A stretch of DNA of 64,000 nt from Thermoplasmata archaeon (GCA_035656255.1 DASRSV010000018.1:68384-132383), one strand, 5' to 3'; shown: positions 16,142 through 57,669, numbered from the stretch's first letter. Made by a program: numbers and translations. Notes: a model not told the origin generated them from the letters alone.

Positions 16142-16288
16142 CCGCAGCCTCTGGCTACCGCCAGTCCCCTCAAGAAGCCGAGCGCCGGCCGAAGGCGCTT
16201 ATCGCCGCACCGGGGGCGGCGGTCGCTTGGAGCACCCGGGGGACGCGCCCGGTCGGGGGAACGTGGGGGCCCATCGACCGGCGGGGAG

Positions 16289-16362
16289 TGCCGCGGGCCG
16301 GGCTTGAACCGGCGGCTTCAAGATCTTCAGTCTTGCACTCTCCCAAACTGAGTTACCGCGGC
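16289..16362 (-). tRNA. tRNA-Phe (GAA)
   Basis: Minus strand GCCGCGG-TA-ACTC...GAGT-G-CAAGA-CTGAAGA-TCTTG-AAGCC-GCCGG-TTCAAGC-CCGGC-CCGCGGC-A. Perfect 7-bp acceptor, anticodon GAA. CCA not encoded. Confidence 0.85.
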
Positions 16363-30251: not shown

Positions 30252-30794
30252 GTGGCGCGGGGGCTCCTCGTCGGGCGGTTCCAGCCGTTCCATCTCGGGC
30301 ATCTCTCGGTCGTGAAGCACCTGAGGGCGAAGCGGCCGAGGGACGCGTTGATCCTCGGCATCGGGAGCGCGCAGGAGTCGCATACGAGCGACAACCCGTT
30401 CACCGCGGGCGAGCGGCTCGAGATGATCGAGCGGACGGTCGCGGCCGAGAAGCTCGACGGCGTCACCGCGGTCCCGATACCGGACATCCACCGCCACAGC
30501 GTCTGGGTCGCCCACGTCGCTTCCCTCGTCCCCCCCTTCCGACGCGTCTACACGAACAACCCGCTCACCCGCCTGCTCTTCGAGGAGGCGCGGTATCCGG
30601 TCGAGGCCGCGCCGATGTTCGAGCGGGCGAAGTGGCAGGGCGCGACGGTCCGCGCGGCGATGCGGACGGGCCACGCCTGGAAGCGGTACCTTCCCGAGCC
30701 CGTCGCCAGCTACCTCGTCTCGATCGATGCGGAAGGCCGGCTCCAGGCGCTCGCCGCCCGGGACGCCGGGAACCTCCCGGACCCGACGCCATGA
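30252..30794 (+). CDS. nadM: nicotinamide-nucleotide adenylyltransferase, archaeal type
   Basis: GRFQPFHLGH (H/TxGH nucleotidyltransferase motif) and archaeal NMNAT fold. Confidence 0.85.
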   Translation: MARGLLVGRFQPFHLGHLSVVKHLRAKRPRDALILGIGSAQESHTSDNPFTAGERLEMIERTVAAEKLDGVTAVPIPDIHRHSVWVAHVASLVPPFRRVYTNNPLTRLLFEEARYPVEAAPMFERAKWQGATVRAAMRTGHAWKRYLPEPVASYLVSIDAEGRLQALAARDAGNLPDPTP

Positions 30795-32044
30795 CTCCGC
30801 GGGAGGCGGATTCGCCGGAGCCGCGACGGTCGGGCCGTCCCCGATTCGACCCGGTGCCGGAGTGGGCGGGCCTCGGGACCGTGCTCGTCCACGGAGCACG
30901 CCGGCCCGAGCGCAACGCGGCGGCGGTCGTTCCACCGATCTACCAGACGTCCACCTTCCATTACCCCAGCGACTTCTCCGAGGCGCGCGAGGGCGGAGAC
31001 GTCCATCTCTACACCCGACTCGACAATCCGACCCACGAGGTCGCGGCGGAGCTCGTGCGGGCCGCCGAGGGGGGCGAGGCGGCCCGCGTCTTCAGCTCCG
31101 GCATGGGCGCGATCTCCTCCACGGTGCTCGCCTTCGTCCGGCCGGGCGACACGGTCGTCGCGCTGGACGAGCTGTACGGCGGGACCCTGGACCTGCTCCG
31201 AGACACCCTGAGCGGCCTCGGCGTCGGCACGCGCTGGGTGACCGCCGAGGAGGCGCGGGCGCCCGAGGACGTGGTGCAGGGGGCGCCGAAGCTGGTGTAC
31301 GTCGAGAGTCCGACGAACCCCTGCCTCGCGGTCCACGACCTCCGGCGCTGGGCCGAGGCGGCGCACGACGCGGGGGCCCTGTTGGTCGTCGACAACACGT
31401 TCGCCACCCCGGTGAATCAGAACCCGATCGCGCTCGGCGCCGACCTCGTCGTGCACAGCGCCACGAAGTACCTCGGGGGCCACGCGGACCTGATCGCGGG
31501 GGCGGTCGTCGGGACCGAGTCGCTCGTGGACCGGGTGGGCGAGGTAAGCGACAACCTCGGCCCGACCCTCGACCCGTTCGCGGCATTCCTCCTCACGCGC
31601 GGCCTGCGGACGCTCGCGCTGCGCGTCGGGCGCCAGAACGAGAACGGGCGGTCGGTGGTCGCGGCCGTCGCGAAGCATCCCGAGGTCGATCGGGTCGACT
31701 ACCCCGGACGCCGCAGCCCCGAGGACGAACGCCTCGCCGCCGAGCAGATGCGCGGGCGCGGGGGGATGGTGTCGATCACGGTCCGCGGGGGGCGGGCCGC
31801 GGCGGAACGGTTCCTGCACCGACTGAAGCTCGTCCACGTCGCCTCGAGCCTGGGGGGAGTGGAGAGCCTGGCGAGCGTCCCGTCCATCACCTCCCACCGG
31901 CATCTGTCGAACGCGGAACTCGAGCGACGGGGCATCCGCGAGGGACTCGTGCGGATATCGCTCGGCGTCGAGGAACCGTCCGACCTCGTCCGGGACGTGA
32001 CCGAGGCCCTCGACGGGCTTGGGTCCGAGAGCGGCCGCGCGTAG
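30791..32044 (+). CDS. PLP-dependent Cys/Met-metabolism enzyme (cystathionine gamma-synthase/gamma-lyase/methionine gamma-lyase family)
   Basis: SATKYLGGH (PLP-Lys), DNTFATP, SLGGVESL motifs. ATG at 30791 overlaps the nadM stop (ATGA). The track ORF 30632..32044 extends upstream spuriously. Confidence 0.85.
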   Translation: MTPREADSPEPRRSGRPRFDPVPEWAGLGTVLVHGARRPERNAAAVVPPIYQTSTFHYPSDFSEAREGGDVHLYTRLDNPTHEVAAELVRAAEGGEAARVFSSGMGAISSTVLAFVRPGDTVVALDELYGGTLDLLRDTLSGLGVGTRWVTAEEARAPEDVVQGAPKLVYVESPTNPCLAVHDLRRWAEAAHDAGALLVVDNTFATPVNQNPIALGADLVVHSATKYLGGHADLIAGAVVGTESLVDRVGEVSDNLGPTLDPFAAFLLTRGLRTLALRVGRQNENGRSVVAAVAKHPEVDRVDYPGRRSPEDERLAAEQMRGRGGMVSITVRGGRAAAERFLHRLKLVHVASSLGGVESLASVPSITSHRHLSNAELERRGIREGLVRISLGVEEPSDLVRDVTEALDGLGSESGRA

Positions 32045-32047
32045 GGG

Positions 32048-32055
32048 TTATAGAG
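32048..32055 (+). promoter_or_regulatory. TATA-like box (TTATAGAG) upstream of tRNA-Thr
   Basis: AT-rich octamer centred about 29 nt upstream of the tRNA 5' end. Confidence 0.45.
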
Positions 32056-32079
32056 CGCGTCCTTACCGGCGCACTCGGC

Positions 32080-32152
32080 GCCACTGTAGCTCAGCTGGCA
32101 GAGCGGCTGATTCGTAATCAGCAGGTCGGGGGTTCAAGTCCCTCCAGTGGCT
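32080..32152 (+). tRNA. tRNA-Thr (CGU)
   Basis: GCCACTG-TA-GCTC-AGCTGGCA-GAGC-G-GCTGA-TTCGTAA-TCAGC-AGGTC-GGGGG-TTCAAGT-CCCTC-CAGTGGC-T. Anticodon CGT, discriminator U. CCA not encoded. Confidence 0.85.
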
Positions 32153-32231
32153 CACGGTCGTTCGACGCGGGCGCGAGCCGCCTGCAACTCGCGGTCCGAA
32201 ATGTCATGGGCCGCGACATACTCTGCGAGCG

Positions 32232-32714
32232 ATGATCCGGCTTGAGCCCATGACGGCCGAAGAGTTCGACGAATCGCTCCGAGGCGGGATAGCTCGTCGC
32301 GCGGAGGACCAGGTGCGGCACGGGATCTGGTCCCCCGTCGAGGCGGCTCAGATGAGCCGTGCGGAGTTCGCCCAGCTACTTCCCCAGGGGAGAGAGACTG
32401 CCCATTTTCGATTCTCCAAGATCATCGACGCGGGGAGCTGGCAGCGTGTCGGCGAGGGCTGGCACAGTGTCGAGGAGAAGGGCGGGAGGGTCCAATTCTG
32501 GCTCCATTGGATCTGGATCGAACCTCACTACCGCCGGAGAGGATACGCGAAGGCGGTATTCTCAACCCTCGAACGAGAAGCCGTGACCGCCGGAGCCGAC
32601 CGGCTAGGCCTGTACGTCGCGGCGGACAACAAGGAGGCGCTTGCGCTCTACGCCGAACTGGGCTTTCGAACGACCAACATGCGGATGGCGAAGACGCTAC
32701 CCGCCCCTCGCTGA
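32232..32714 (+). CDS. GNAT family N-acetyltransferase
   Basis: WIWIEPHYRRRGYAKAVFSTLEREA...LGLYVAADNKEALALYAELGF, the acetyl-CoA binding motif A region. Confidence 0.75.
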   Translation: MIRLEPMTAEEFDESLRGGIARRAEDQVRHGIWSPVEAAQMSRAEFAQLLPQGRETAHFRFSKIIDAGSWQRVGEGWHSVEEKGGRVQFWLHWIWIEPHYRRRGYAKAVFSTLEREAVTAGADRLGLYVAADNKEALALYAELGFRTTNMRMAKTLPAPR

Positions 32715-32929: not shown

Positions 32930-33817
32930 TCACACGGGGGGCTGCTTCCGGCGGACCACGACCTGTCCCCGCGTCCTTGGAGGCGGGCGGATCACATCGA
33001 ATGCGCCGGGCAGTGCCTCCAACAGGTCGCTGAGCTTCGACCGCCCGTAGGTACGCGGGTCGAAGGCCGGGTCGATCTGGAGGAGCGCGTTGCCGAGCTC
33101 CGCGAGATAGGAGGATCCGTCTTCCCCTGCAACGGCGTCGAACGCCTTCTCGATCAGGTCGGCGGCCTCGTGGGGCGGGCGCCGCTCGGGGGTCGGAGCG
33201 CCGTCGACCGCGGGGGTCGCCGGCCGAGCCCGGGGGGCGCGCGGCACCGGGCGCTCCGGTCGGGGCCGGGCGGGCAGGAGGTTCTCGGTCGCCACGAAGA
33301 CATGGCACGCGTTGCGGAACGCGGCCGGCGTTTGGGCGCGCCCGATACCGACCACGAGCATCCCGGACTCTCGGAGACGGGTCGCGAGCCGGGTAAAGTC
33401 GGAATCCGAGGAGACGATGCAGAAGCCGCGCACCCGCCCGCTGTGGAGGATGTCCATGGCGTCGATGATGAGCGCGCTGTCGGTCGCGTTCTTCCCCGAC
33501 ACCGCGACGAACTGCTGGATCGGGACCAAGGCGTGCTCCTGGACAACCGGCTTCCAGGAGCTCAGCTTGCCGGAGGCCCAGTCGCCGTAGACCCTCCGGA
33601 TCTCCACGGACCCGTACTTCGCCGCCTCAACGAGCATCTCGCCGATCAGTCCGGCGGCCGCATTGTCGCCATCGACTAGAAACGCGAGCGGAGTCGTGCG
33701 GGCGGGCGCGAGCGGCTCGACCGACCCCTCGTCGGTTCGTTCACTACCCGCGCGGCGTGATGGGGCGGACACGCATCGCCCCACCGGGAGGCGCTCGTAA
33801 GACTTTGGCCCGGACAA
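32930..33817 (-). CDS. NYN (PIN-like) domain protein with C-terminal OST-HTH/LOTUS domain
   Basis: LAFLVDGDNAAAG...VEIRRVYGDW...IDAMDILHSGRVRGFCIVSSDSDFTRLATRLRESGMLVVGIG is the NYN domain. Then a Pro/Arg-rich linker. Then ADLIEKAFDAV..GEDGSSYLAELGNALLQIDPAFDPRTYGRSKLSDLLEALPGAF, OST-HTH-like. Confidence 0.65.
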   Translation of the reverse strand: MSGPKSYERLPVGRCVSAPSRRAGSERTDEGSVEPLAPARTTPLAFLVDGDNAAAGLIGEMLVEAAKYGSVEIRRVYGDWASGKLSSWKPVVQEHALVPIQQFVAVSGKNATDSALIIDAMDILHSGRVRGFCIVSSDSDFTRLATRLRESGMLVVGIGRAQTPAAFRNACHVFVATENLLPARPRPERPVPRAPRARPATPAVDGAPTPERRPPHEAADLIEKAFDAVAGEDGSSYLAELGNALLQIDPAFDPRTYGRSKLSDLLEALPGAFDVIRPPPRTRGQVVVRRKQPPV

Positions 33818-33974: not shown

Positions 33975-36900
33975 TTGCCGCCACTTACGTTTTCGAGGGG
34001 CGGCCGACAGGGGCAACCCTCCCTCCGGTGGGGTTCGAACCTTCGCCGAGCCGCGGTAGCGTGGTCGATCATCACTCTCTCCGTCATCGGTTCGCTGACC
34101 GGCAGCGGCCTCGGCGCTTTCGGGCACGGGACGGGCCGATTAGCGCCGACGCCATCCGACCGTTCCCCCCCAGCTTCGGGGTCGACGTTGACCACCGTGC
34201 CCGTGCCGGTGGCGGCTCCGGCGCCCGGAGGAAACGTCGCGCCCAGCGCGAGCGTTCCGGTGAGCTCGGGGCGGGGCACGTTCTTCTCGAGCTACCAGAT
34301 GCCCGCGCCCACTCCCGGCAATCTCACCTGTAGCTACGGAACGAGCTGCTACAACGTATCCAACGAGCCGTCGCTCAACCTGACCCGAACGGGGCTCCTC
34401 GCCGTCGCCTACACCGCGCTCACGAACAACTCCCAGTGCCCACTCATGCGCAGCCAGGCGACGGTGGAAATCGGCTTCTCGGTATCTCGGAATGGCGGCC
34501 TGACGTGGAGCCGCCCCGCCTACCTCGGCAATCCGAACTGTGGGCAGGCTCAGGTGTACGCCAACGCCTGGCAGCCGAGCCTGACGTCCCTCGGCAACGG
34601 AACGCTCGTTCTGGCCTACATCCAGTCGAACTACACATACCGGGCGACGCCCCCCTACGTCGACTGCTACGCGACCACCTTCGACCGGCTCGTGGTCTCC
34701 GAGAGCTTCGACAACGGCTCGCATTGGACCACGCCGACGGGAGTGTACAACATCAGCGACCCCACCCCGAACGGAGTTTGTCCGGTGGGCTTCCCGATCG
34801 AGCGCCCGTGGGTCACCGCCTACGGCCAGACCCTTTACCTGGTGTGGGAGAACCTCACGACGCCCGTCAACGGCGGGCCTGTCGGCTCGAGCGCCGTCCA
34901 CCTCCGGGTCTCCCGGGACGGCGGGACCACGTGGGGGGCGGTCCGTCACCTACCGACGGAGTACGCGTACGACCCGTACGCCGGCCGCTACGTCGGCGAG
35001 GCGATGAATCCGACGATCACGACCGACCCCTCGGGCGCCGTCTTCATCGCCTACGCGACCAACCTTTCGCTCCAACGCAGCTGCTACCTCACGTACTGCC
35101 CGTACTACTGGCACGCGGACGTCGTCGTCGCGAGCTCGACGAACAACGGGAGCTCGCTCAATCTGTCGCGGGTCGACAACACCACGGTCCCCGACCAGAA
35201 TCCGTACGGACCGTTCAGCGACCCGTCGCCCCAACTCGCGTACTCCGCGCGGTTCGGTCAGCTGTATGCCACCTACGACGGCGGCGTCTTCGGCGAGTAC
35301 TGCTACAATTACACTTACAATTACTACTACTACGGGTCCACCTACCACGCCGCGTACCCCAACTGTTACTACGCGGACCGGCCGACCGTATTCTTCGCAA
35401 ACTCGTCGGATGCGGGCCGCACCTGGTCGGTCGCCCACGCCGTCGACCCGACGCTCATCCTGCCGTCGGGGGGACCTCCCGACCGGCTCTATCGGCCCGC
35501 GCTCGCCGTCGACGCCAGCGGTCGGATCCACCTCGAGGCGGCGTTCACGAACGCCTCGGTCTGCGGCCTCGTGCAGTACGCGTACTCGACCTCGTACTAC
35601 TACAATTACACCGTCTGCGGCGCCGAGCAGGAGGAGTACTTTTCGAGCGTCGACAACGGGAGCAGCTTCGTCGGCCCGATCACCGTGGCTTCGAACGCGA
35701 CGCCGTATTCGCAGAGCTCGTACGAATGGGACGGAGAGTACGCGACGATGGTCGCCGGCTACGGCCACGTTTGGCTCGGCTGGGTGAACGACCAGTGCCC
35801 CACGTGGAACTCGAGCGGCTGCTACTACGGGGGCCCGTCGGGTTCGTCCCGGGTCGTGGTCTCTGAGCTCTACACCGGCCCCGGGCTCGCGATCACCTTC
35901 CGGGAGAAAGGGCTCCCGAACGGGACGCTCTGGAGCGCCGAGCTCTTCGGGAACCAGCGGGCGACCGCGGCGCCGGGGACGCTGAGCGTTTCGGGCGTCC
36001 CCCCCGGCGAGTGGCTCACGTGGTCGTCCCCGTGGGTCAATCTGTCGTACGGAGTCAAGTACCAGACATCGCTCAATCCCCCGTCGCCGGGCGCGTTCCA
36101 GGTCAACTCGACCGTCATCGTGACCTTCGACGGTTTCGGACTCCTGAACCTCACCACGTTCCCCGCCCTCGGCTACAATGTCTGGGCGTCGCGCGGGGCG
36201 ACCAACTACAACCTCACTCCGCTCCCGTCCGCGACGTGGCTCCCGCTCGGGCACCGCGTCAACCTCTCCGCGGCGGTGCTCGGGAACCTCTCGACGAGCT
36301 CGGTGTGCAGCTACTATTGCTCGTACTACAACCTGAGCTTCCTATCGTGGACCGGCGCCGGGCCCGGGAGCGTGAATTCGGTTGCGCCCGCTCCGGCGCT
36401 CCACGTCGCAGGCGCGATCAACGAAACCGCGAACTTCCAGTTCGACTCGATCTGTTCGGGGTACAATCGGTCGCTGGGGTACTCCCCGGCCCTCGCGTGC
36501 CTGAACTTCACCTACCCGCTCGTGTTCCACGAGTCCGGACTTCCGGCCGGCACGCCGTGGGCGGTGACCGTCGGCACCAACCTCACGAACGAGAGCACGG
36601 GCCCGTGGCTCGACTTCGAGGTCGGGGTCGGCCCGGTGCCGTTCACGGTCTGGAGCTCTCGCGCCTCGACCCCGAACAACGTCTGGGTCGGCGTGCCGTC
36701 GACGCCGTCGCCGGCCGAGCTCCCGATCGACCGCACGATCAACGTGACGTTCCACGAGGTGGCGCCCGCGAACGCGACGTTCGAGGGCCGGTTCCTCGCG
36801 GTGGGGCTGCCGGCCGGGACGAACTGGTCGGTCACGATCGGGAACCTCTCCTACGGGACCTCGGGACCGCTCCTCGGTCGGAACGTGAGCGGCGGTCCTC

Positions 36901-38489
36901 TCGACATGAACGTCACGCCGATCGTGGGCACGAACGGTACGGGATACTACCCCGCGGGATGGTCGATCGAGCCGTTCGATATCGGGACCTCCCCGATCAA
37001 CGGGAGCTCCGAGCCGTTCGCCTTCTCGCCGAACAGCTCCTTCGCCGTGACGATCGACTTCCGACCGATGTACCTCCTCCGCGTCCTCGCCACGGTCGGG
37101 GGATCGGCCGGCCCGTCCGAGACGTGGGTGCCCTCGGGCGGATCGGTGGTGTTGCACGAGCTGCCGAACGCGGGCTTCCGATTCGGCGGATGGACCGGAG
37201 CCGGCCCCGGGGCGACCACCTCCGCGCAGGCGAACGAGTCGAGCCCTGTGGTCTCGCCGCTCGGGGCGGTGACGGAGACGGCCGAGTTCTACGCGTACGT
37301 TCCCCTCTGGTCGATCGCCGTCCTGGCCGCGGGCCTCCCGACCGGCCAGGGGTTCCCCGTCCAGTTCGGCCCGTCGACCTACTGGCTGCACGTCGGGGAC
37401 CGGTTAGGAGGGATAGCTTCCGGCGACTACCGCGTCGTCTTCCCTCCGGCGTACTCGAACAGCTCGAACGACACACGGTTCGTCGCGACGTCGTGGAGCT
37501 CCTCGTACGGGCGGCTCGCGAACGGGACGCTCGCGATCGGCGCCAACGGCTCGATCGTGGTGACGTTCGGTGCCCAGTTCGCCCTCACCGTCGCCTCGAC
37601 GCCGCACGGGAGCACGTCCCCACCCGCCGGGCGCTACTGGTTCGCCGCGGGGTCGACCGTGACCCTCGGCGCCGCTCCCGACCCGGGAGCGCAGTTCGTC
37701 AGCTGGGCGGGCGGCGGCTCCGGGGCCATCGCGTCCAGCCAACCGTCGATTTCGGTGCTGATGACGGGACCGACCTGGGAGTCCGCCCGGTTCGCGCTCT
37801 CGGGGGGGGCCGCGGGCTCGTTCACGCTCACGGCGACCGAGACCGGCCTCCCTGCGCGGACCACCTGGTCGATCGCCGCCGGCGGGAGCGGCATCGCGGG
37901 GAGCGCGTCGTTCCTCGTCGTGCCCGGGCTCAACGGAACCTACCCGCTCGCCGTACCGGCGGTCTACATCTCTCCCGACGAGCGGTTCGTCGCGCAGGCG
38001 CCCACCTCGGTGCAGGTCACCGCGGACGCGAGCGTGGCCGTGACGTTCACCGAGCAGTTCCGCGTGCAGCTGACCAGCTCCCCCGGTGGCACTGTCGCTC
38101 CCTCCGGCGTCCTCTGGGTCGCCCTCGCCGGCTCGGTCAACGTCCGCGCGCAGCCGAACGCCAGTGCCGCGTTCCTCGGATGGAACGGCACAGGAGTCGC
38201 GGCGTGCTCGAGCGCCTCCCTCGACTGCATCCTGAACGTGACCTCGCCCCTCGTCGTCGTGGCCTCGTTCGGGCCCCACGCCCCGCCCGCCCCTTCAGCG
38301 GCGACCTCCGGCATCGGTTCGGCGACCGTGCCACTGCTCCTCGTGGCGGCCGTCCCGGCCGTCGTCGGGGTCGTGCTGGGGGTCCTCGTCCGACGCGTGC
38401 GCGGTTTCCGACGGGCCTCGCCTGATTCCGAGGTTGGAGCTTCCCCCCCCGGGGAGGAGGTCGAGGCCGATGGCCCACCCGTGGGCTGA
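33975..38489 (+). CDS. giant secreted surface protein: signal/anchor, BNR (Asp-box) beta-propeller, alternating GLPxGTxW and GYxFxGWxG (InlB-B-repeat-like) modules, C-terminal TM anchor
   Basis: 1504 aa. Asp-boxes SVSRNGGLTW, SRDGGTTW, SSDAGRTW, SVDNGSS. Five modules with [F/L]xExGLPxGTxW. Four with F[RV]FxGW[TA]G.G.G. Dozens of N-x-S/T sequons. Tyr/Cys-rich inserts (CYNYTYNYYYYGSTYHAAYPNCYY). C-terminal ATVPLLLVAAVPAVVGVVLGVLVRRVRGFRR. Confidence 0.75.
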   Translation: MPPLTFSRGGRQGQPSLRWGSNLRRAAVAWSIITLSVIGSLTGSGLGAFGHGTGRLAPTPSDRSPPASGSTLTTVPVPVAAPAPGGNVAPSASVPVSSGRGTFFSSYQMPAPTPGNLTCSYGTSCYNVSNEPSLNLTRTGLLAVAYTALTNNSQCPLMRSQATVEIGFSVSRNGGLTWSRPAYLGNPNCGQAQVYANAWQPSLTSLGNGTLVLAYIQSNYTYRATPPYVDCYATTFDRLVVSESFDNGSHWTTPTGVYNISDPTPNGVCPVGFPIERPWVTAYGQTLYLVWENLTTPVNGGPVGSSAVHLRVSRDGGTTWGAVRHLPTEYAYDPYAGRYVGEAMNPTITTDPSGAVFIAYATNLSLQRSCYLTYCPYYWHADVVVASSTNNGSSLNLSRVDNTTVPDQNPYGPFSDPSPQLAYSARFGQLYATYDGGVFGEYCYNYTYNYYYYGSTYHAAYPNCYYADRPTVFFANSSDAGRTWSVAHAVDPTLILPSGGPPDRLYRPALAVDASGRIHLEAAFTNASVCGLVQYAYSTSYYYNYTVCGAEQEEYFSSVDNGSSFVGPITVASNATPYSQSSYEWDGEYATMVAGYGHVWLGWVNDQCPTWNSSGCYYGGPSGSSRVVVSELYTGPGLAITFREKGLPNGTLWSAELFGNQRATAAPGTLSVSGVPPGEWLTWSSPWVNLSYGVKYQTSLNPPSPGAFQVNSTVIVTFDGFGLLNLTTFPALGYNVWASRGATNYNLTPLPSATWLPLGHRVNLSAAVLGNLSTSSVCSYYCSYYNLSFLSWTGAGPGSVNSVAPAPALHVAGAINETANFQFDSICSGYNRSLGYSPALACLNFTYPLVFHESGLPAGTPWAVTVGTNLTNESTGPWLDFEVGVGPVPFTVWSSRASTPNNVWVGVPSTPSPAELPIDRTINVTFHEVAPANATFEGRFLAVGLPAGTNWSVTIGNLSYGTSGPLLGRNVSGGPLDMNVTPIVGTNGTGYYPAGWSIEPFDIGTSPINGSSEPFAFSPNSSFAVTIDFRPMYLLRVLATVGGSAGPSETWVPSGGSVVLHELPNAGFRFGGWTGAGPGATTSAQANESSPVVSPLGAVTETAEFYAYVPLWSIAVLAAGLPTGQGFPVQFGPSTYWLHVGDRLGGIASGDYRVVFPPAYSNSSNDTRFVATSWSSSYGRLANGTLAIGANGSIVVTFGAQFALTVASTPHGSTSPPAGRYWFAAGSTVTLGAAPDPGAQFVSWAGGGSGAIASSQPSISVLMTGPTWESARFALSGGAAGSFTLTATETGLPARTTWSIAAGGSGIAGSASFLVVPGLNGTYPLAVPAVYISPDERFVAQAPTSVQVTADASVAVTFTEQFRVQLTSSPGGTVAPSGVLWVALAGSVNVRAQPNASAAFLGWNGTGVAACSSASLDCILNVTSPLVVVASFGPHAPPAPSAATSGIGSATVPLLLVAAVPAVVGVVLGVLVRRVRGFRRASPDSEVGASPPGEEVEADGPPVG

Positions 38490-41400
38490 TCCCTCCTGTC
38501 CACGCCGGCAAGGTGGTCGCGCGCCCGCGTGGCTTGCCTGCGCGGTCGGGGCACTATCGGTCGCGGTCCTCCTTGCCGTCCCGCCGTCGGACCATGGGAA
38601 TGGCCGGCTCCAGGGTACCCAAGGGCCGGCCGTGCGCGCCACGGTTGAGCCGGCCGTTTCGAACCGGGCCCCCACCGCCCCGTCCGGCTCGATGAATACG
38701 TCGGTCACGGGCGTCTTCTTCGCGAACAACACCTCGTTCGCCGCGCCGGGGGCCGGTCGTCAGTACTGCGTGGTGGGTCCGTCGACCTACTACTACTACC
38801 AGTACGACTACTGCTACCCGCAGGCCCAGAATCCGTCCGTCGTCCGTCTCGCGAACGGCGCGATCGGGGTCGGCTACTCGGTCTACACGAACCGGTCGAC
38901 GACCGCGTGTACGGCCGAGGCATCGCAGACGAACGCCCGGGTGGCGTTCTCCGTCTCCGCGACGAACGGTTCCACGTTCGCCGCCCCCGTCGACATCGGC
39001 AACGGAACATGCCGATTCCTCCAGGCGATCGAGCCGTCGTTCGCCGTCGCGCCCGACGGGACGCTCTATGCGGCGTTCATCGAAGAGAACGCGTCGAGCC
39101 AGGTGTACGGAAACGGCTCGACGCTCCCGGGGGATTTCGCGAACCGGTCGACCGATGCGCTCGCCTTCGTCGTCTCCCGCTCGAACGGGAGCTCGTTCTC
39201 GGCGCCGGTGCCGCTCGACGCGAGCGGGAACCTCGCGCGCCCGATCGTGGCCGCGTTCGGCCGATCCGTGTACGTCCTCTACGAGAACCTCACGAACACC
39301 ACGACCCCGATCCCTTCTGCGGTGAATCCTTCCCCGACGCCGATCGCGCTCCGGCTACTCGCCTCGGCGGACGAGGGGGCGACGTGGTCCGGCCCGTACA
39401 CCCTCCCCGGCCTGAACCGCAGCCAGGGATACACGGCGTTCGCCGGTTCGATGGCGGTCGAGCCGACCGGGAGCGTGGTGGTCGCGTACGCGACGAACCG
39501 GAGCTGCGTCCTCGACTACGTCAGCTACTGCTACCGATACGGCGAGCAGATCGTCGTCGCTGCGTCGACGACGAACGGGTCGACCTGGGGGGTGCCGACG
39601 GTCGTCGGCGCCGGGGTGGGGGAGGCCCGGTGCTTCGACTACGTGAACACCACCTCGGCGTGCCCCCGCTACCTCTTCGAGTGGGCGCCCGAGACGACCG
39701 TGGCGTTCGACCCCGCCGTAGGACGCCTCGTCGTCGCCTGGGCCGGGACGTTCGACCGGCACGCCTCGAACGTGTTCGAGAACTACCTCACGACCGGCGT
39801 CTACGTGGCGATCGCCTCCGCCCCGACCGGTCCGTGGACCGTGACCGCCTCGCATCTCCAGCCGGACCCGAGCAGCCTCGACGACTACTACACGCCGGCC
39901 CTCGGTGTGGTCGCTGGTTCCGTCTATCTCACCTACACCTGGAAGAACGCCACGACGTACTGCTACTCCTACTGCGACTACCTCGACGGGACGATCACCC
40001 AGTGGACGCAGTGGAGCCCGAACGGGCGGAACTGGAGCGCGTCCATCCTCCTCGGGCTGGCGAAGGTCTACGGCTATCCCGTCGCGACCCCCGAGACCTG
40101 GCCCGGGTACCTCGCGTCGGTCGGCGCGACCGCCGCGGGGCGACCGGTGATCGCCTACGCGCTCAACCAACCGGCGACCAGCACCAGCTGGTACTCGAGC
40201 AGCCTGGGAAAGTACCTGTACAACACCAGCTACGCGACCGTCCTCGCGCTCGCCCATCCGTATGTCGGGCGGACCGTGACGCTCAACCTCACGGAGACGG
40301 GCCTTCCCGGGAACGCTTCGTGGACGGTCGCTGTGGACGGCAACAACTTCACCGCGTCCACGCCGACGATCCTGGTAACGGACGTCCCGCCGGCGTCGGG
40401 CGTTCTGCTGCACCAGTTCCCGTTCCCCGCCGCGTACCGGACGATCTCCACCTCGTCCACGAGCACCCCACAGTTCGCGACCTACACCGTGAACGCGACC
40501 GTCCTGGTCGCCTACACCGTCCAGTACGGATTCGCCCTCTCCTTTGAGCCGACCACGATCAGCTACGTCTCCGTCGGGGTGGACGTCGCCGGATACTACT
40601 ACTCGGACTACGAGTCGACGTCGCTCTACAACGGCGTGACCTACCATTCGGACTACGCCTACCCCTCGTTCCCGTGGTACCTCCCCCTCGGTGCGCGGGT
40701 CACCTTCGCACCGTCGTCGACGCCCCCGATCGCGTACTGGAACGGGACGGGACCGGGCGCGTTCAGCGGGCTCGGCGGCTGGGCGAACGTGACGATCGAT
40801 GCCCCGATCAACGAGACCGGCTGGGGTGGAGCGTACGGCCGCTCGTCCGTCACCTTCCAGTCGCTCGGCCTCCCCCCCAGCTCGAACTATACGTTCGGCT
40901 TCCGCGGGACGAACCACACGGCACCCGGCAACGCCTCGGTCGTCGTCGCCAACGTCACGACCGGGGCGTACCCGATCGGTCCAGCGCAGGCGACGGCGCT
41001 CCGCCCGGGTTGGGAGTACTTCGGCCGCGCGTCGGTCGGAGATACCGTCGTGGTACCGGTCGAGCCACTGGTGAACTTCTCCTACGTCCTCGTCGATGTC
41101 GGCGCCCCGGCGGGCCCGGCACGGTTCCACGCGGTCGGCTTGACCGCCGGGACGGTCTGGCGGCTCGGGTTCAACGGCACGACGTACAGCTCGGCCACCC
41201 CCTGGATCAACCTCACGACCCGGCCCGGCACGTTCGACATCGCGCCGCAGCCGGTCGTCGCGGCGAACGGCTCGGCCGGCTATGCTCCGTTCGACCTGGG
41301 ACCGTCGATCAACGTCACGACGGGATCCACCTACAACCTGAGCTTCACCGCGGCCTATCGGGTCGAAGCGACGGCCGGGGTCGGCGGGTCGGTGTCGAAC

Positions 41401-42837
41401 GGGAGCCCCGGCTGGGTCGCGAGCGGGACGAATCGTTCGTTCACGGAGACGCCGAACTCCGGTTACACGTTCACCGGCTGGGAGGGGACCGGTGTCGGCT
41501 CCTACTCGGGGCCAAGGCCGACCGCGAGCGTGGTCGTAGGGGGACCGGTCACGGAGGTCGCCGGTTTCGCCCCGCTCGCCTCGGACCGTTTCAACGTTAC
41601 GTTCCTCGAATCCGGGATCCCGTCCGGCACCTTGTGGTCCGTCGACGTCAGCGGCGCGGGATACGCCTCGGACCGGCCGACGATCACCGTGCCGAGCCTT
41701 CTCTCGTGCTCGGCCGGGACGGCGGGACGCTATTCCCTCTCGGTGCCGGACGCGTTCGCGAACGGCACGGGGGAGACACGGTTCTCCGCGATCAGCTATC
41801 CCACGGAGTTCTGCACCGACGGCGGAACGGTCGTGGGGGTCGCGTTCGAGGAGCGGTTCCGCGTCGGCGTCACATCGACCGATGGTGGGGCGGCCTCCGT
41901 TTCGGCCGGGGGGCTGGTCGGTCCCGGACCGGTCTGGGTCCCGAACGGTTCCCCGGTCGAGCTCGTCGCGCAGGCGGCGGCCGGCTTCCGGTTCGTCGAA
42001 TGGGAGGGGAGCGGGACGGGAGCGTACTCGGGAACATCGGCGTTCGAGAACTTCACACCCGCCGCGAGCGTCGACGAGCTCGCGGTCTTCGGTCGAAGCG
42101 CGGGCGCCTCAACCCCGACCTTCACGGTCGCATTCACCCTCGCGGCCGAGATTCTTCCCGGGACGACATGGAGCATCGACTTCGCGTCGCGGGAGTTCTC
42201 CTCCTCCACCCCGGAGCTGAACGTCTCGGGACTACCCTCCGGAACGTACACGCTCACCGTGCTGCCGGCCTACGGACCGGACGGCCAGACGGAGTACATG
42301 CCGAGCGGCGGCTCGGTCCAGATCTCCGTCACGGAGAACCTCTCGTGGTCGGTCGCCTACGCGGCGAGCTTCTGGGTCGCGGTCGCGGCGACCCCCGGCG
42401 GGTTCGCCGGCCCCGGCTCGGGTTGGGTCCCCGCCGGCGCCGGGATCGCCCTGAATGCGACCGCGGCCCCCGGATACACGTTCGACGGATGGGTAGGGTC
42501 CGGACCGGGACGGAACTATTCGGGGCCGGACGCGAATCCGACGTTCCGCGCCACCGGGCCGGTCTCGGAGCTCGCGGTGTTCACTCCGGCCATCGCCTCG
42601 ACGCTGCGCCCTTCGGCCGCGCCGGCCGTCGCACCGTGGATCTGGGCGGCCGTCGGCGGGACCGGTCTCGCGATCGGACTCGGGGCCGGAACATGGCTGA
42701 TCCGACGGCGTCCTCCCGGCGCCTCTGCCGTCCGTCCCGCGGAGCCGGAGCCAGATGCGACCGAGCCCCCCTGGCAGGAGGTTGTGGCCCCGGGCACGAA
42801 CGGGAGTGTCGAGGACCTCCCCCCGGAGGAGCCGTAG
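38434..42837 (+). CDS. giant secreted surface protein, paralog of the upstream gene (same architecture)
   Basis: 1467 aa. Asp-boxes SADEGATWSGP, STTNGSTWGVP. GLPxGTxW modules (ETGLPGNASW, ESGIPSGTLW, ILPGTTWSIDF). GYTFTGWEGTGVGSYSG-type modules. YYYYQYDYCYPQ insert. C-terminal TM WIWAAVGGTGLAIGLGAGTWLIRRRPP. True start is probably the ATG at 38470 (MAHPW...), downstream of the preceding stop. Confidence 0.75.
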   Translation: MELPPPGRRSRPMAHPWADPSCPRRQGGRAPAWLACAVGALSVAVLLAVPPSDHGNGRLQGTQGPAVRATVEPAVSNRAPTAPSGSMNTSVTGVFFANNTSFAAPGAGRQYCVVGPSTYYYYQYDYCYPQAQNPSVVRLANGAIGVGYSVYTNRSTTACTAEASQTNARVAFSVSATNGSTFAAPVDIGNGTCRFLQAIEPSFAVAPDGTLYAAFIEENASSQVYGNGSTLPGDFANRSTDALAFVVSRSNGSSFSAPVPLDASGNLARPIVAAFGRSVYVLYENLTNTTTPIPSAVNPSPTPIALRLLASADEGATWSGPYTLPGLNRSQGYTAFAGSMAVEPTGSVVVAYATNRSCVLDYVSYCYRYGEQIVVAASTTNGSTWGVPTVVGAGVGEARCFDYVNTTSACPRYLFEWAPETTVAFDPAVGRLVVAWAGTFDRHASNVFENYLTTGVYVAIASAPTGPWTVTASHLQPDPSSLDDYYTPALGVVAGSVYLTYTWKNATTYCYSYCDYLDGTITQWTQWSPNGRNWSASILLGLAKVYGYPVATPETWPGYLASVGATAAGRPVIAYALNQPATSTSWYSSSLGKYLYNTSYATVLALAHPYVGRTVTLNLTETGLPGNASWTVAVDGNNFTASTPTILVTDVPPASGVLLHQFPFPAAYRTISTSSTSTPQFATYTVNATVLVAYTVQYGFALSFEPTTISYVSVGVDVAGYYYSDYESTSLYNGVTYHSDYAYPSFPWYLPLGARVTFAPSSTPPIAYWNGTGPGAFSGLGGWANVTIDAPINETGWGGAYGRSSVTFQSLGLPPSSNYTFGFRGTNHTAPGNASVVVANVTTGAYPIGPAQATALRPGWEYFGRASVGDTVVVPVEPLVNFSYVLVDVGAPAGPARFHAVGLTAGTVWRLGFNGTTYSSATPWINLTTRPGTFDIAPQPVVAANGSAGYAPFDLGPSINVTTGSTYNLSFTAAYRVEATAGVGGSVSNGSPGWVASGTNRSFTETPNSGYTFTGWEGTGVGSYSGPRPTASVVVGGPVTEVAGFAPLASDRFNVTFLESGIPSGTLWSVDVSGAGYASDRPTITVPSLLSCSAGTAGRYSLSVPDAFANGTGETRFSAISYPTEFCTDGGTVVGVAFEERFRVGVTSTDGGAASVSAGGLVGPGPVWVPNGSPVELVAQAAAGFRFVEWEGSGTGAYSGTSAFENFTPAASVDELAVFGRSAGASTPTFTVAFTLAAEILPGTTWSIDFASREFSSSTPELNVSGLPSGTYTLTVLPAYGPDGQTEYMPSGGSVQISVTENLSWSVAYAASFWVAVAATPGGFAGPGSGWVPAGAGIALNATAAPGYTFDGWVGSGPGRNYSGPDANPTFRATGPVSELAVFTPAIASTLRPSAAPAVAPWIWAAVGGTGLAIGLGAGTWLIRRRPPGASAVRPAEPEPDATEPPWQEVVAPGTNGSVEDLPPEEP

Positions 42838-42912: not shown

Positions 42913-43767
42913 CTAGGCGATGGTGATCGAATTCAGCGTCGCTCCGTTGCCGAGCGTCGCGAAGTTCAGGCTCGCCTGCGCGGACCCGCCGGTGATGTAG
43001 GTGTTGTACGCGTCCATCTCGGCGTACGCCTGACCGAACAGATCGATCTCCAGGATGAACGATTGCGAGGTATTGAGCGCCGTCGCGTTCACGTACCAGA
43101 CGATGTTCTGGCTGCCGCTGAACGAGCCGGTCGCGCCGCCGAGCGTCGCGGTCGAGCAGGAGCCGCTGCTGCACGTCGTCGAGTTCTCGGAGATGTTCTG
43201 GAACCCGATCCAGAAGTTCGACGAGGAGTAGACGCTGCCGTTGTAGGTGTCGTAGAGGTAGGCGACGCCGGCGAGGAACGCCTGCGCGACCTCGGTGCAC
43301 CCGTACGTAGTGTTCGTGCTGACCTTGCACGCACCGGGGGTGAACTTCTCCGATAGCGCGGCCGTGAACGTCCAGTTCACCTTGATGTGCACGTGCGACT
43401 TGAACAGCTTCACCGGGAGCACGACCGAAACTTGGCTGGCCGCGAGCCCGCGATTGGCGATGTTCGTTGGGAGCCCTGCGCACGCCGCATCCGAGGCCGT
43501 GTCGGAGAACCCGCCGGTGCCGGTCTTCGGGGAGAAGTGCGGCGCGGCCGTCACTCGGTCCTTGCCGCACGCGACCTGCCCGGTGTTGCTGAACGTGGCG
43601 ACGAGCAGGTGCTTGTAGGGGGCCTTCAGGATCGCGGGATGCAGGAGCGAAGCGGAGCCCATCGGCGCGAGGACCACGACAAGGGCGACCACGGCGAATC
43701 CCCCTCCCGACATCGCCCCCAGCCATCGGCCCGTCCGAACTCGTCCAACCCGTTCTCTTGCGTTCAT
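42913..43767 (-). CDS. secreted/signal-anchored S/T/N/G-rich hypothetical protein
   Basis: 284 aa. N-terminal hydrophobic FAVVALVVVLAPMGSASLL. Many N-x-S/T sequons and Cys pairs. No recognisable catalytic motif. Sits immediately after the two giant surface-protein genes. Confidence 0.5.
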   Translation of the reverse strand: MNARERVGRVRTGRWLGAMSGGGFAVVALVVVLAPMGSASLLHPAILKAPYKHLLVATFSNTGQVACGKDRVTAAPHFSPKTGTGGFSDTASDAACAGLPTNIANRGLAASQVSVVLPVKLFKSHVHIKVNWTFTAALSEKFTPGACKVSTNTTYGCTEVAQAFLAGVAYLYDTYNGSVYSSSNFWIGFQNISENSTTCSSGSCSTATLGGATGSFSGSQNIVWYVNATALNTSQSFILEIDLFGQAYAEMDAYNTYITGGSAQASLNFATLGNGATLNSITIA

Positions 43768-46243: not shown

Positions 46244-46327
46244 CGGGCAGACCGAGAGCCGGAGGATGAAACTGTTCGGTCCCCTTCAGGGGATCGCCGG
46301 GCTCGTCGATAGAACCTTAAGCCGCGG

Positions 46328-47569
46328 GTGCTCGGGAGTCTAGTGCGTATGAATGCGCATTATCGCCGGTTCCGAATCCGACCCACGCGACCCGGCTCCT
46401 CACCGGAGGGCGGGCCGCCGTGGATCCTCGTTCCTGTCGTGGCGATCGTCCTTGCGGCGTGTCCCGGCGGCTTGCTCACCGATGGCGCCCGCGCTCCGGC
46501 GAAGAGCTTCGGGGAAGGAGCGACGACGCTCGCGGGGATGTTCCCCACTCCGATTCGGCATGTGATCGTGGTGTTCTTCGAAAACACGGAGGTCAACACC
46601 ACCCTCGCCGGCGCGCCGTTCGAGCGGTCGATCGCGGCGCACTACGCGTTCGCGAGCCAATTCTACGCGGTCGCGCACTACTCCCTGCCGGACTATCTCG
46701 CCGCGACCTCGGGCGCCGTGAAGAGCCCGGCGACCCCGTTCAGCGCCCGGAACATCGGAGACCTCGCCAAGGCCCGGAATCTCTCGTGGGATGGGATCAT
46801 GGAGGGGATGCCGACCGCATGCGACCGCCAGGACGACTGGAGCGTGGGCTACGACGTCGCTCATGACCCGTTCGTCTGGTATTCCGACGTGATCCACAAC
46901 CCCGGTCGCTGCGACCAGCGCGTGGTCAACATGACGGCGTGGAACGCGTCGCTGGCCGTGGGAACGCTCCCGAACTACGTGTTCCTCTCGCCCGACACGT
47001 TCGATGACGCCCACAACGGCACCCTCCTCCAGGCGGACGCTTGGCTCGCGAACCTCACCCGTTCCCTGCTCGGGCATCCGCGTCTCTTCGCCTCGACCGC
47101 GCTGTTCGTCACCTACGATGAGGGTACGTCGAACCTAGGATTCAACGGAACCAGCGGGGGCCACGTGTACCTGGCTCTCGTGAGCCCGTTTGCCCGGTTC
47201 GGGTACAACTCCACCCACCCGTACAATACGATCAGTCTGCTCACCACCGCCGAATGGCTGCTCGGGCTCGGACGCACGGGACACAACGACAACTGGTCGG
47301 TGAATCCGCCGATGCGAGACCTGTTCAACTTCGCGAAGAGCTACGCGGTCGGCGGCTCCGTCACCGACCTCTCCGGGACCCCGATCGTCAATGCCACGAT
47401 CTCGGACGGGCTCGGGGTGTCGACGACGACCAACGCCTCCGGAGGGTTCGTCCTCTACCTGTCCTCGGGATCCTACAATCTCACGGCCTCCGCGGCCGGG
47501 CTCGTCCCGGTCACCCGGTCGATCGTGGTCCACCACGCGGCGATCACGGGGATCCGGTTCCGACTCTGA
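46328..47569 (+). CDS. secreted PF04185-type phosphoesterase (PlcN/AcpA family) with C-terminal CarboxypepD_reg-like beta-sandwich
   Basis: IRHVIVVFFENTEVN, AHYSLPDYLAATSG, VFLSPDTFDDAHN, FVTYDEGTS family blocks. N-terminal hydrophobic WILVPVVAIVLAAC. C-terminal GSVTDLSGTPIVNATISD...GGFVLYLSSGSYNLTASAAG. Start may be the ATG at 46349. Confidence 0.75.
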   Translation: MLGSLVRMNAHYRRFRIRPTRPGSSPEGGPPWILVPVVAIVLAACPGGLLTDGARAPAKSFGEGATTLAGMFPTPIRHVIVVFFENTEVNTTLAGAPFERSIAAHYAFASQFYAVAHYSLPDYLAATSGAVKSPATPFSARNIGDLAKARNLSWDGIMEGMPTACDRQDDWSVGYDVAHDPFVWYSDVIHNPGRCDQRVVNMTAWNASLAVGTLPNYVFLSPDTFDDAHNGTLLQADAWLANLTRSLLGHPRLFASTALFVTYDEGTSNLGFNGTSGGHVYLALVSPFARFGYNSTHPYNTISLLTTAEWLLGLGRTGHNDNWSVNPPMRDLFNFAKSYAVGGSVTDLSGTPIVNATISDGLGVSTTTNASGGFVLYLSSGSYNLTASAAGLVPVTRSIVVHHAAITGIRFRL

Positions 47570-55614: not shown

Positions 55615-55623
55615 TGTGTATAT
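55615..55623 (+). promoter_or_regulatory. TATA-like AT-rich element (TGTGTATAT) upstream of the phosphoesterase gene
   Basis: AT-rich nonamer abutting the track GTG at 55624, which argues that GTG is not the start. The first downstream in-frame ATG is 55756. Confidence 0.35.
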
Positions 55624-55755
55624 GTGAGCACGGATACCCACCCCCCCTTGCCCGGCGAATTCGACAGAGCGGGGTCCGGGGGCTCCGGGGACGAGCTGAG
55701 GACGGTCGAGGGGCCATCGGTCGCGGCCGACGGGCGGGGGCGCAGGGATCCGGTG

Positions 55756-57597: not shown

Positions 57598-57669
57598 TGG
57601 GGGCTCGCTCGGGAAACCTCCGCCGGCCGAGACCGACGGTCGAATCATGATTTTCCGGAGGTCCCCACC

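Follow-up and report, generated by a model that had tools for sequence, protein, structure and literature searches.

The window analysed here is a stretch of 64,000 nucleotides from a Thermoplasmata archaeon (70% GC) whose relatives are Lutacidiplasmatales-type MAGs; the host lineage is uncultured and of the acid-soil type. Positions 33975 to 42837 carry two adjacent plus-strand genes, ORF1 and ORF2, whose homologs divide cleanly into two types, A (ORF1) and B (ORF2). The TTG at 33975 is the sole canonical in-frame start 5′ of the N-terminal hydrophobic segment of ORF1, which is 100% identical to P0001, a gene call shortened to a GTG 95 codons in. For ORF2, the ATG at 38470, also picked by the gene caller, is a more likely start than the TTG at 38434 (38434–42837). 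The initial annotation gave the gene coordinates and lengths correctly (1504 aa for ORF1 and, from the TTG, 1467 aa for ORF2), and its reading of the two products as paralogs with a common layout is confirmed by a pairwise alignment that runs end to end with 27% identity (E 3e-65). The arrangement of the overlapping stop and start makes co-transcription and coupling of the two genes probable. The features are as follows.

33975..38489, plus strand: ORF1, type-A surface glycoprotein gene, TTG start, 1504 aa
33975..34121, plus strand: ORF1 signal peptide or N-terminal anchor, an Arg-rich n-region and the h-region AAVAWSIITLSVIGSLTGSGLGAF
34260..35879, plus strand: ORF1 Asp-box beta-propeller head, residues 96–635, with Cys-bounded loop inserts including a Tyr-rich loop at 443–464
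35880..38282, plus strand: ORF1 stalk, nine beta-sandwich modules (AF2 model, hhalign, Pfam)
ORF1 GLP modules, plus strand: GLP1 35880–36170, GLP2 36486–36770, GLP3 36771–37097, GLP4 37302–37604, GLP5 37818–38084
ORF1 GW modules, plus strand: GW1 36192–36470, GW2 37098–37298, GW3 37605–37802, GW4 38085–38282
38328..38486, plus strand: ORF1 C-terminal TM helix (38328–38390) and tail, RR-rich and then acidic/Pro-rich, cytoplasmic
38470..38489, plus strand: 20-nt overlap of the ORF1 stop and the ORF2 ATG, with GAGG 3 nt 5′ of the ATG
38470..42837, plus strand: ORF2, type-B surface glycoprotein gene, 1455 aa from ATG 38470
38710..40269, plus strand: ORF2 propeller head, residues ~81–600, Asp-boxes degenerate, a Tyr-rich Cys loop close to the N-terminus
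40270..42594, plus strand: ORF2 stalk, nine modules in the same order as in ORF1 (profile comparison; three Flg_new_2 matches)
ORF2 GLP modules, plus strand: GLP1 40270–40557, GLP2 40843–41103, GLP3 41104–41382, GLP4 41584–41883, GLP5 42118–42396
ORF2 GW modules, plus strand: GW1 40612–40836, GW2 41383–41577, GW3 41884–42099, GW4 42397–42594
42637..42834, plus strand: ORF2 Gly-rich TM segment WIWAAVGGTGLAIGLGAGTWLI, RRR and a 44-aa acidic/Pro-rich tail

Both proteins have signal-peptide-like N-termini. The n- and h-regions of ORF1 are followed by a Pro/Ala/Ser linker, a layout repeated in about 50 homologs, and the HGTGRL motif after the signal region is conserved with ORF2. The proposed C-terminal TM anchor with a basic tail (RRR/RRV) is strong in ORF1 (Kyte-Doolittle 2.93 at residues 1454–1472), and this C-terminal layout is present in all complete homologs; the ORF2 segment is weaker and Gly-rich, under the Kyte-Doolittle threshold of 1.6, with the helix clear in other type-B proteins. 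A PGF-CTERM sorting signal or PGF motif is absent from the C-termini, which have the TM segment, RRR and acidic tail instead, and there is no LPXTG/sortase signal, each protein ending in a TM helix. The signal/TM layout, the archaeal neighbouring genes (including a proteasome alpha subunit and archaeal LonB) and the fact that every homolog falls in Thermoplasmata or Ca. Lutacidiplasmatales MAGs all support the initial view of membrane-anchored archaeal surface proteins, which are probably heavily N-glycosylated.

The BNR/Asp-box propeller region recognised at the outset is borne out by a Pfam BNR_2 match (PF13088, 2.9e-9) in ORF1, by structure prediction and by Foldseek, for which the best structural matches of the head are 7-bladed propellers. 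ORF2 reached no match to Pfam BNR_2 and has one strict Asp-box against five in ORF1, the remainder being degenerate; its propeller aligns with that of ORF1 across the entire length. The Tyr/Cys clusters, once thought to lie at equivalent positions, occupy different loops: C-YNYTYNYYYYGSTYHAAYPN-C widens a Cys-bounded loop at residues 443–464 of ORF1, whilst YYYYQYDYC in ORF2 belongs to another Cys-bounded loop, near the propeller N-terminus, that aligns to ORF1 residues 119–125. The head shares with GH33 sialidases and BNR propellers the Asp-box (S-x-D-x-G-x-T-W) between strands and the all-beta propeller fold. It differs in its size (~540 residues), in its large Cys-bounded Tyr-rich inserts and in the sharp sequence gap that separates the family (E ≤ 2e-87) from its closest outside relatives, generic BNR proteins of ~450–550 aa (E ≥ 8e-20). 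It also lacks the conserved catalytic set of Arg triad, Tyr/Glu nucleophile and Asp acid/base. Across 23 A and B propellers no D, E, R, H or K column is invariant or at least 90% conserved, in a 53-sequence alignment (mostly type A) conservation of 80% is attained at just four positions, R238, R277, E131 (as D/E) and the Asp-box D560, and a search for the FRIP motif ([FYW]R[IVL]P) found none.

The stalk had been read as about five GLPxGTxW modules interleaved with GW modules; the AF2 model and profile comparison give exactly five GLP and four GW modules per stalk, in the order GLP-GW-GLP-GLP-GW-GLP-GW-GLP-GW. For the ORF1 stalk, a pLDDT of 89.1 with a pTM of 0.42 fits domains that fold independently, their positions with respect to one another being unpredicted. 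The two module types are unrelated to one another by hhalign, with probabilities of 95–99.7% for GLP-GLP comparisons, above 99% for GW-GW and at most 19% for GLP-GW. The GW modules are InlB-B-repeat-like, as suggested: Flg_new_2 (PF18998, a divergent InlB B-repeat) matches three of them in each protein (E ~1e-16; 58.9 bits in ORF1 and 60.9 in ORF2 against a gathering cut-off of 23.6), and the fourth, GW1, lies below the Pfam threshold and is related to the others by hhalign (>99%). Isolated GLP modules gave no Pfam match even at E ≤ 10. The module combination is undescribed insofar as neither the protein as a whole nor the GLP module falls within any curated family, but GLP itself is a widespread archaeal repeat without a Pfam model (5029 cluster representatives) and is not peculiar to these proteins. 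A suggested affinity with thermopsin-like repeats was not upheld, as the Pfam Thermopsin family matched neither ORF1 nor ORF2 and occurred in none of 34 other GLP-repeat proteins, a small sample in which GLP repeats were accompanied by Flg_new_2, Phosphoesterase and a few other families.

Structure prediction and Foldseek agree with the expected propeller plus beta-sandwich folds. Foldseek matches the stalk to the CnaB/pilin proteins PitA, Cna B1B2, SpaC and T-antigen (probability 0.8–1.0), with low TM-scores that stem from the multi-domain query. In the Gram-positive adhesins and pilins (Cna B-repeats 1d2p, PitA 7vcn, SpaC 6m48) a tandem prealbumin/CnaB-like stalk likewise projects a head, but at 8–11% identity the likeness is one of fold only, and the archaeal proteins have predicted N-glycosylation in place of LPXTG-type cell-wall linkage. 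With two or three Lys per protein (0.1–0.2% of residues), Lys-dependent isopeptide bonds of the CnaB type are essentially impossible. Other Flg_new_2/InlB B-repeat proteins resemble ORF1 and ORF2, with four GW modules each, in their extracellular small beta-domains; here, however, the GW modules alternate with unrelated GLP modules, are capped by a propeller and form part of a fixed two-gene system. Listeria InlB has LRR and GW cell-wall-binding parts, and ORF1 and ORF2 have neither.

The dozens of N-x-S/T sequons reported initially number 51 in ORF1 and 47 in ORF2, where shuffled sequences average 14.1 and 11.4 (z 11.3 and 11.7). Sequons take in 66–76% of all Asn; cytoplasmic proteins from the same window have 0–2 each. 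About 40% of sequon positions are retained in at least 50% of orthologs despite a column identity of only ~0.3–0.5. Charged residues (K+R+D+E) make up ~9–10% of ORF1 and ORF2 compared with ~24% of their cytoplasmic neighbours, and 55 homologs share this low charge and the scarcity of Lys. A near-Lys-free, charge-poor ectodomain with ~45–50 predicted N-glycosylation sites would fit a glycan-shielded, acid-exposed surface.

The division into types is deep, type-B homologs scoring 650–860 bits against ORF2 and 100–240 bits against ORF1, and the two types stand side by side at every informative locus (28 of 28). Wherever upstream sequence was present, at 28 loci, the gene immediately 5′ of A was a B gene, and arrays of the form B-A-B-A extend to at least four pairs; MAG AcS5-107 has at least five pairs over ~44 kb. 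The order within the window is A then B, and these genes nonetheless overlap by 20 nt. At 20 of 21 B-to-A junctions there is a 4-nt RTGA overlap, mostly behind GGAGG or a near variant, the last being a 1-nt TAATG overlap, so that these junctions are usually translationally coupled. In one MAG, B and A are joined in frame in two fusion proteins whose topology remains workable, where assembly or sequencing error is possible. A-A and B-B distances across 22 pairs are correlated (Mantel r 0.936, p ≤ 2e-4), within-genome paralogous pairs being included, although such a correlation can also stem from shared history. Of the proposed old duplication under diversifying pressure, the age stands and the pressure finds no support: head and stalk are equally conserved (mean column identity 0.29–0.49 per domain). 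That both subfamilies are conserved, and stay next to each other as an obligate pair, points to partners that may have become subfunctionalised. Adjacency, coupling and co-divergence speak for co-expression and duplication as a unit, not for physical contact.

In our view, ORF1 and ORF2 probably form the paired components of a complex, not described before, that serves as cell coat or in adhesion. Each protein would be exported by its N-terminal signal peptide and held by one C-terminal membrane helix, exposing the propeller head at the end of its stalk, which consists of nine small beta-sandwich domains. A and B may then act jointly as a hetero-complex, probably a heterodimer, in which stalks would fix the spacing from the membrane and heads would make up the distal face, serving lateral contacts or ligand binding. 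Beyond the observed gene structure, folds, sequon excess, A/B split, adjacency, coupled junctions, co-divergence and fusions, we infer a physical interaction, abundance and a coat-forming role; that this co-expressed type I membrane glycoprotein pair forms the major building block of the outer coat of these Thermoplasmata, whether as a canopy resembling an S-layer or as an ‘exterior protein layer’ without regular order, is a proposal we consider evenly balanced.

Neither protein matched an S-layer family in Pfam or NCBIfam. Like the archaeal S-layer glycoproteins, among them Haloferax volcanii csg and Sulfolobus SlaA/SlaB, they are large, secreted beta-sandwich proteins with predicted N-glycosylation and a C-terminal TM anchor. 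The co-transcribed slaA and slaB are likewise adjacent, and low Lys and low charge are shared with acidophile surface proteins. Sulfolobus, however, divides the roles between a canopy protein, SlaA, and an anchor, SlaB, whereas A and B are paralogs over their full length, each with its own membrane anchor, and we know of no archaeal S-layer protein with a propeller head. Two-subunit surface systems elsewhere offer analogies, with no homology detected or claimed: integrin alpha carries its propeller head on Ig-like legs that lead to one TM segment and a short tail in the cytoplasm, and in the Tannerella forsythia S-layer pair TfsA/TfsB two large glycoproteins encoded side by side function jointly. 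Unlike integrin alpha/beta or TfsA/TfsB, A and B share one architecture, and their heterodimerisation is putative.

Several divergent pairs per genome and a single head on a long stalk would suit adhesins or receptors equally well. The pairs could be stalked adhesins or lectin-like receptors rather than bulk coat, with the head binding polysaccharide, mineral, a neighbouring cell or a symbiont, the stalk reaching past the glycocalyx and divergent pairs giving multiple specificities. The resemblance of the stalk to PitA, Cna B-repeats and SpaC (Foldseek probability 0.9–1.0), the divergence of 37–60% between pairs within one genome and the InlB-B-repeat/Flg_new domains typical of ‘adhesin-like proteins’ in other Thermoplasmata all lend themselves to such a role. 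We regard it as possible yet somewhat doubtful, since the head is no more variable than the stalk, contrary to expectation for specificity-diversifying adhesins, simple adhesins do not usually come in strict, coupled 1:1 pairs, and no conserved charged or aromatic pocket could be mapped. Arrays of up to four or more deeply diverged pairs might instead be a surface-variation repertoire, for example in evasion of viruses or episymbionts, in which A and B are independent, non-interacting proteins kept adjacent by block duplication, a process that by itself can yield the Mantel correlation. This seems unlikely: the A/B split is older than the diversification of the clade, yet neither partner has been lost at any informative locus, and the conserved RTGA junction, SD-like GGAGG and in-frame fusions suggest selection for equimolar co-production.

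Very improbable, in our view, is a function as surface-anchored glycoside hydrolases, sialidase/GH33-like or of another BNR-propeller type. The BNR_2 match in ORF1, the bacterial sialidases that head the Foldseek list (E ~1e-11) and the names ‘sialidase family protein’ and ‘glycoside hydrolase’ given to some homologs would favour it, but those structural matches have TM-scores of just 0.3–0.56 at 9–15% identity, ORF2 misses BNR_2, and the gap to other BNR proteins is wide. With no family-wide invariant Arg, Asp, Glu, His or Lys and no FRIP motif, the head appears to be without conserved catalytic residues and the database names unsupported.

Returning to the coat proposal, cultured Thermoplasmatales have, where an S-layer would be, a glycoprotein layer that is dense, ~20 nm thick and of unknown composition (PMC12448462). 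As to the initial suggestion of a possibly wall-less archaeon, the absence of an S-layer is known only for the order Thermoplasmatales, which is distant from the host lineage (PMC12448462), and no homologs of the A/B pair were detected in cultured members, so that a tie to their exterior protein layer is one of analogy only. More tentatively, A and B might be heterodimers, capped by propellers and shielded by glycans, whose ‘stalk forest’ takes the place of a crystalline S-layer in S-layer-less or atypically coated Thermoplasmata. If so, the several coupled B-A cassettes in a genome would encode alternative coats, the first in archaea to be assembled from obligate paralog heterodimers with beta-propeller heads, and the pair would be a long-sought type of building block of the envelope.

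The interval 33975–42837 of the window is filled by two long open reading frames on the same strand, ORF1 (type A) and ORF2 (type B), in which the initial annotation had recognised two paralogous surface proteins. This is confirmed: the proteins align over their full length with 27% identity (E = 3e-65) and share the same layout. Both belong to the archaeal surface glycoproteins, and the window itself, with a G+C content of ~70%, is archaeal. Neighbouring genes include those for the proteasome alpha subunit, the archaeal LonB protease, a radical-SAM enzyme and FolD, and a public counterpart of the window was matched in the Logan assembly of SRR12347816.

33975–38489, plus strand: ORF1, TTG start, 1504 residues
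38470–42837, plus strand: ORF2, ATG start, 1455 residues
46313–47569, plus strand: PF04185 ‘Phosphoesterase’ paralogue (phospholipase C / acid phosphatase family)
55615–57597, plus strand: PF04185 paralogue
57598–59514, plus strand: PF04185 paralogue
16288–16362, minus strand: tRNA-Phe
60710–60782, minus strand: tRNA-Ala

The TTG at 33975 is the sole canonical in-frame start 5′ of the N-terminal hydrophobic segment of ORF1. As this segment and the HGTGRL motif that follows it are conserved between ORF1 and ORF2, the public gene call for ORF1 (P0001), which starts 95 codons later at an internal GTG (residue 96), has lost its signal peptide; the missing signal peptide and linker (window 33975–34259) are conserved in all homologues. 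A TTTAAG box was considered as the TATA box of ORF1 but lies only 15–20 nt upstream of the TTG, which is too close, and a scan of the locus for sigma-70 promoters and intrinsic terminators was uninformative, the host being an archaeon. For ORF2 the likeliest start is ATG 38470, the one used by the public gene call, which places its first 20 nt within the end of ORF1.

Divergent from ORF1, across an intergenic region of ~340 nt, lies a gene for a protein with NYN ribonuclease-like and OST-HTH/LOTUS domains (32930–33637, minus strand), a neighbour that is not conserved at other A/B loci. Convergent with ORF2 is an ORF of ~260–285 residues (42913–43767, minus strand), for which the public assembly calls a 259-residue gene. 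It has a signal-peptide-like N-terminus (…GGGFAVVALVVVLAPMGSASLL) and 8 N-x-S/T sequons, no Pfam match was found and it was not seen adjoining the pair at other loci; these features suggest a small, uncharacterised glycoprotein that is secreted. A tRNA-Thr(CGT) gene (32080–32153, plus strand) falls within a mechanically listed 502-residue ORF (30727–32235), where the true gene encodes a 417-residue Cys/Met-metabolism PLP enzyme and ends upstream of the tRNA. The three PF04185 proteins, two of them encoded in tandem (55615–57597 and 57598–59514) and bearing fn3 domains, the other (46313–47569) bearing a CarboxypepD_reg domain, are all low in lysine and sequon-rich (10–15 sequons), and are probably secreted glycoproteins.

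Each of the paired proteins begins with an Arg-rich n-region and a hydrophobic segment, followed by a Pro/Ala/Ser linker and a head of ~540 residues, an Asp-box β-propeller. Nine small domains form the stalk, after which come a single transmembrane segment, RRR or RRV, and an acidic, Pro-rich tail of 30–45 residues; neither protein has an LPXTG or PGF-CTERM signal. Propeller and β-sandwich folds are both predicted with confidence. The stalk model is confident for each domain (pLDDT 89.1), and its pTM of 0.42 is as expected of independently folded domains without predicted relative placement. Its closest folds are CnaB/prealbumin-like stalk domains from Gram-positive adhesins and pilins, but because lysine is nearly absent (0.1–0.2%), the Lys isopeptide bonds of a CnaB-like stalk cannot form in ORF1 or ORF2. 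Charged residues as a whole (K+R+D+E) make up ~9–10%, against ~24% in cytoplasmic neighbours.

Profile–profile comparison resolves the stalk into two unrelated module types: five ‘GLP’ modules (consensus F-x-E-x-G-L-P-x-G-T-x-W...G-x-Y...V-x-V-x-F; mutual relatedness 95–99.7% probability) and four InlB-B-repeat-like ‘GW’ modules (>99%), with at most 19% probability between the types. Their order, GLP-GW-GLP-GLP-GW-GLP-GW-GLP-GW, is common to both proteins. The cysteines (20 in ORF1, 14 in ORF2) are even in number, closely paired in sequence and mostly conserved, which suggests intradomain disulfides; an intermolecular disulfide between the proteins was rejected on the same grounds, there being no sign of unpaired conserved cysteines. 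The Tyr/Cys inserts that had been placed at equivalent positions do exist, but the Cys-bounded, Tyr-rich loops that they enlarge differ between the proteins: residues 443–464 in ORF1 and, in ORF2, the loop matching ORF1 119–125.

ORF1 has 51 sequons, compared with 14.1±3.3 in shuffled sequences, and ORF2 has 47, compared with 11.4±3.0 (z ~11), with 66–76% of all asparagines located in sequons. This excess, together with the retention of ~40% of sequon positions in at least half of orthologues, strongly predicts heavy N-glycosylation. It is reasonable to read the proteins as N-glycosylated envelope components of a Thermoplasmata-type archaeon.

Among 5.8 billion proteins searched, 55 homologues were found, nearly all of 1400–1560 residues with the same C-terminal anchor, low lysine and 33–59 sequons; all those that are named belong to ‘Thermoplasmata archaeon’ MAGs. 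When GTDB genomes were scanned with a single protein query no loci were found, and a profile query was needed to recover 33, in MAGs of Thermoplasmata and ‘Candidatus Lutacidiplasmatales’, many from an acid-soil (AcS) study. Lutacidiplasmatales genomes have a GC content of ~69% (PMC9287336), and the envelope is not discussed in that paper. A profile of the propeller alone separates the A/B family (E ≤ 2e-87) from all other matches (E ≥ 8e-20), which are generic bacterial BNR proteins of ~450–550 residues. A PDB sequence search with ORF1 gave chance-level matches only, an NCBIfam search gave nothing useful, and no description of the family was found in the literature searched.

The homologues form two clearly separate groups, type A (resembling ORF1) and type B (resembling ORF2), and at every one of the 28 loci with sequence upstream of A, gene B directly precedes A in the same orientation; six further loci without an upstream B, where A sits at a contig edge, were excluded from this count. 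Arrays also occur: B-A-B-A-B-A-B-A on JAKIWE010000003.1, whose MAG has one more pair at another site, and B-A-B-A at locus L036. The RTGA-type 4-nt stop/start overlap is a classic layout for translational coupling, and it is found at 20 of 21 distinct B-to-A junctions, the other being a 1-nt TAATG overlap. Upstream of most RTGA overlaps, at a distance of 5–8 nt, stands GGAGG or something very near it, a Shine-Dalgarno-like motif (loci L001–L034; for example ~9780 in L008 and ~10001 in L001). An apparent C-terminal protein motif of type B, EGG(x)(P/A), was rejected as such, since the conserved ‘EGG’ is this ribosome-binding site of gene A read as protein. Junctions from A to B inside arrays are looser, with gaps of 84–150 nt. 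The A-to-B order of the window is unusual; ORF1 and ORF2 overlap nonetheless.

Pairwise distances among A proteins track those among their B partners (Mantel r 0.936, p ≤ 2e-4; 22 pairs, window included), also among paralogous pairs within one genome (for example 0.37/0.43 versus 0.53–0.60). The A/B pair, on these sequence comparisons, duplicates and diverges as a unit. Synteny beyond the pair was not conserved among the compared loci. One MAG (AcS11-62) encodes two in-frame B-A fusion proteins, P0045 (2574 residues; locus L030, 5405–13132) and P0054 (1944 residues), both cut by contig ends. In each, the transmembrane segment and tail of B run into the signal-anchor of A, which would place both ectodomains outside; they may be genuine Rosetta-stone fusions, the alternative being that the 4-nt overlap was misassembled. 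The window pair is better seen as one example of an A/B gene pair that is conserved and translationally coupled than as an isolated tandem duplication under diversifying pressure. Diversifying pressure on a binding head is without support, since conservation is uniform along the protein (mean column identity 0.29–0.49 per domain) and the head is no more variable than the stalk.

Many type A cytoplasmic tails (P0004–P0050; L012, L016–L025) finish with [ILAV]-Y-[DGS]-E-[GSA]-P, some with a W-[ST]-E nearer the membrane. This Y[DG]E[GS]P motif occurs often, though not in every tail, and is absent from ORF1, whose tail (…EVEADGPPVG) lacks the tyrosine. Where present, it may serve to dock a partner in the cytoplasm.

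Some homologues are named ‘sialidase family protein’ or ‘glycoside hydrolase’, names that rest on a BNR_2 match. In a comparison of 23 propellers of both types, conservation stays below 90% in every Asp, Glu, Arg, His or Lys column, none being invariant, and in a 53-sequence alignment only R238, R277, E131 (as D/E) and one Asp-box Asp reach 80%. As, in addition, no FRIP motif was found in the head and ORF2 has no BNR_2 match, a catalytic GH33-type site is very unlikely, and the misleading automatic names can be corrected.

In the pair, two genes of the same orientation overlap and encode paralogous type I membrane proteins, marked by an extreme sequon excess and by conserved pairing, coupling, co-divergence and occasional fusion. 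We propose that both proteins would be exported by Sec and N-glycosylated at most sequons by AglB, and that A and B would assemble 1:1, standing on the membrane as a nine-domain stalk with the propellers distal. At roughly 3.5–4 nm per domain, the stalk could reach up to 30–35 nm when extended, and less if folded back. Many such complexes may form the outer coat of the cells or, failing that, a major structure on their surface, a role suggested by their size, anchoring, composition, glycosylation and genomic investment, and by analogy. Cultured members of the related order Thermoplasmatales have no crystalline S-layer but a dense, unordered glycoprotein layer of ~20 nm, whose proteins are unidentified (PMC12448462); the analogy is with this layer. 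The propeller-only profile search found no A/B homologue in those species. The main rival to the coat is a role for the same complex as an adhesin or receptor.

The GLP module extends well beyond this family. With the cut-off relaxed to E ≤ 10, isolated GLP and GW1 modules still match nothing in Pfam, and a GLP profile gave chance-level matches only against PDB sequences, revealing no relative of solved structure. A word-indexed search with a 10-module profile found nothing at E ≤ 0.001; exhaustive HMMER searching was required, and placed the module in 5029 cluster representatives (623 at E ≤ 1e-30). Typical carriers are unannotated ‘hypothetical proteins’ of ~80-residue repeats (Y-x-V-T-F-x-E-x-G-L-P-x-G-T-x-W-S-V-T-L-N-G...N-G-T-Y-x-F-x-V...G-Y...V-T-V-x-G) closing with a transmembrane segment and RRRR, and tandem arrays reach 44 copies, in a 3552-residue protein (among P0056–P0203). 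The sole carrier bearing an organism name belongs to a Thermoplasmata MAG. One unrelated protein combines PF04185 with GLP repeats. The module is common yet absent from curated libraries, and the family is distinguished only by joining it to the propeller and by the A/B pairing. This GLPxGTxW module of ~80–95 residues is a very common archaeal surface repeat with neither a Pfam model nor a solved structure, and is a candidate for definition as a new domain family.

The uncultured Lutacidiplasmatales-type Thermoplasmata are archaea that abound in acidic soils and peat. The A/B glycoproteins are ~150 kDa each, and some genomes devote ~2% of their DNA to the family. The pair provides a concrete, testable envelope candidate for this abundant uncultured order.
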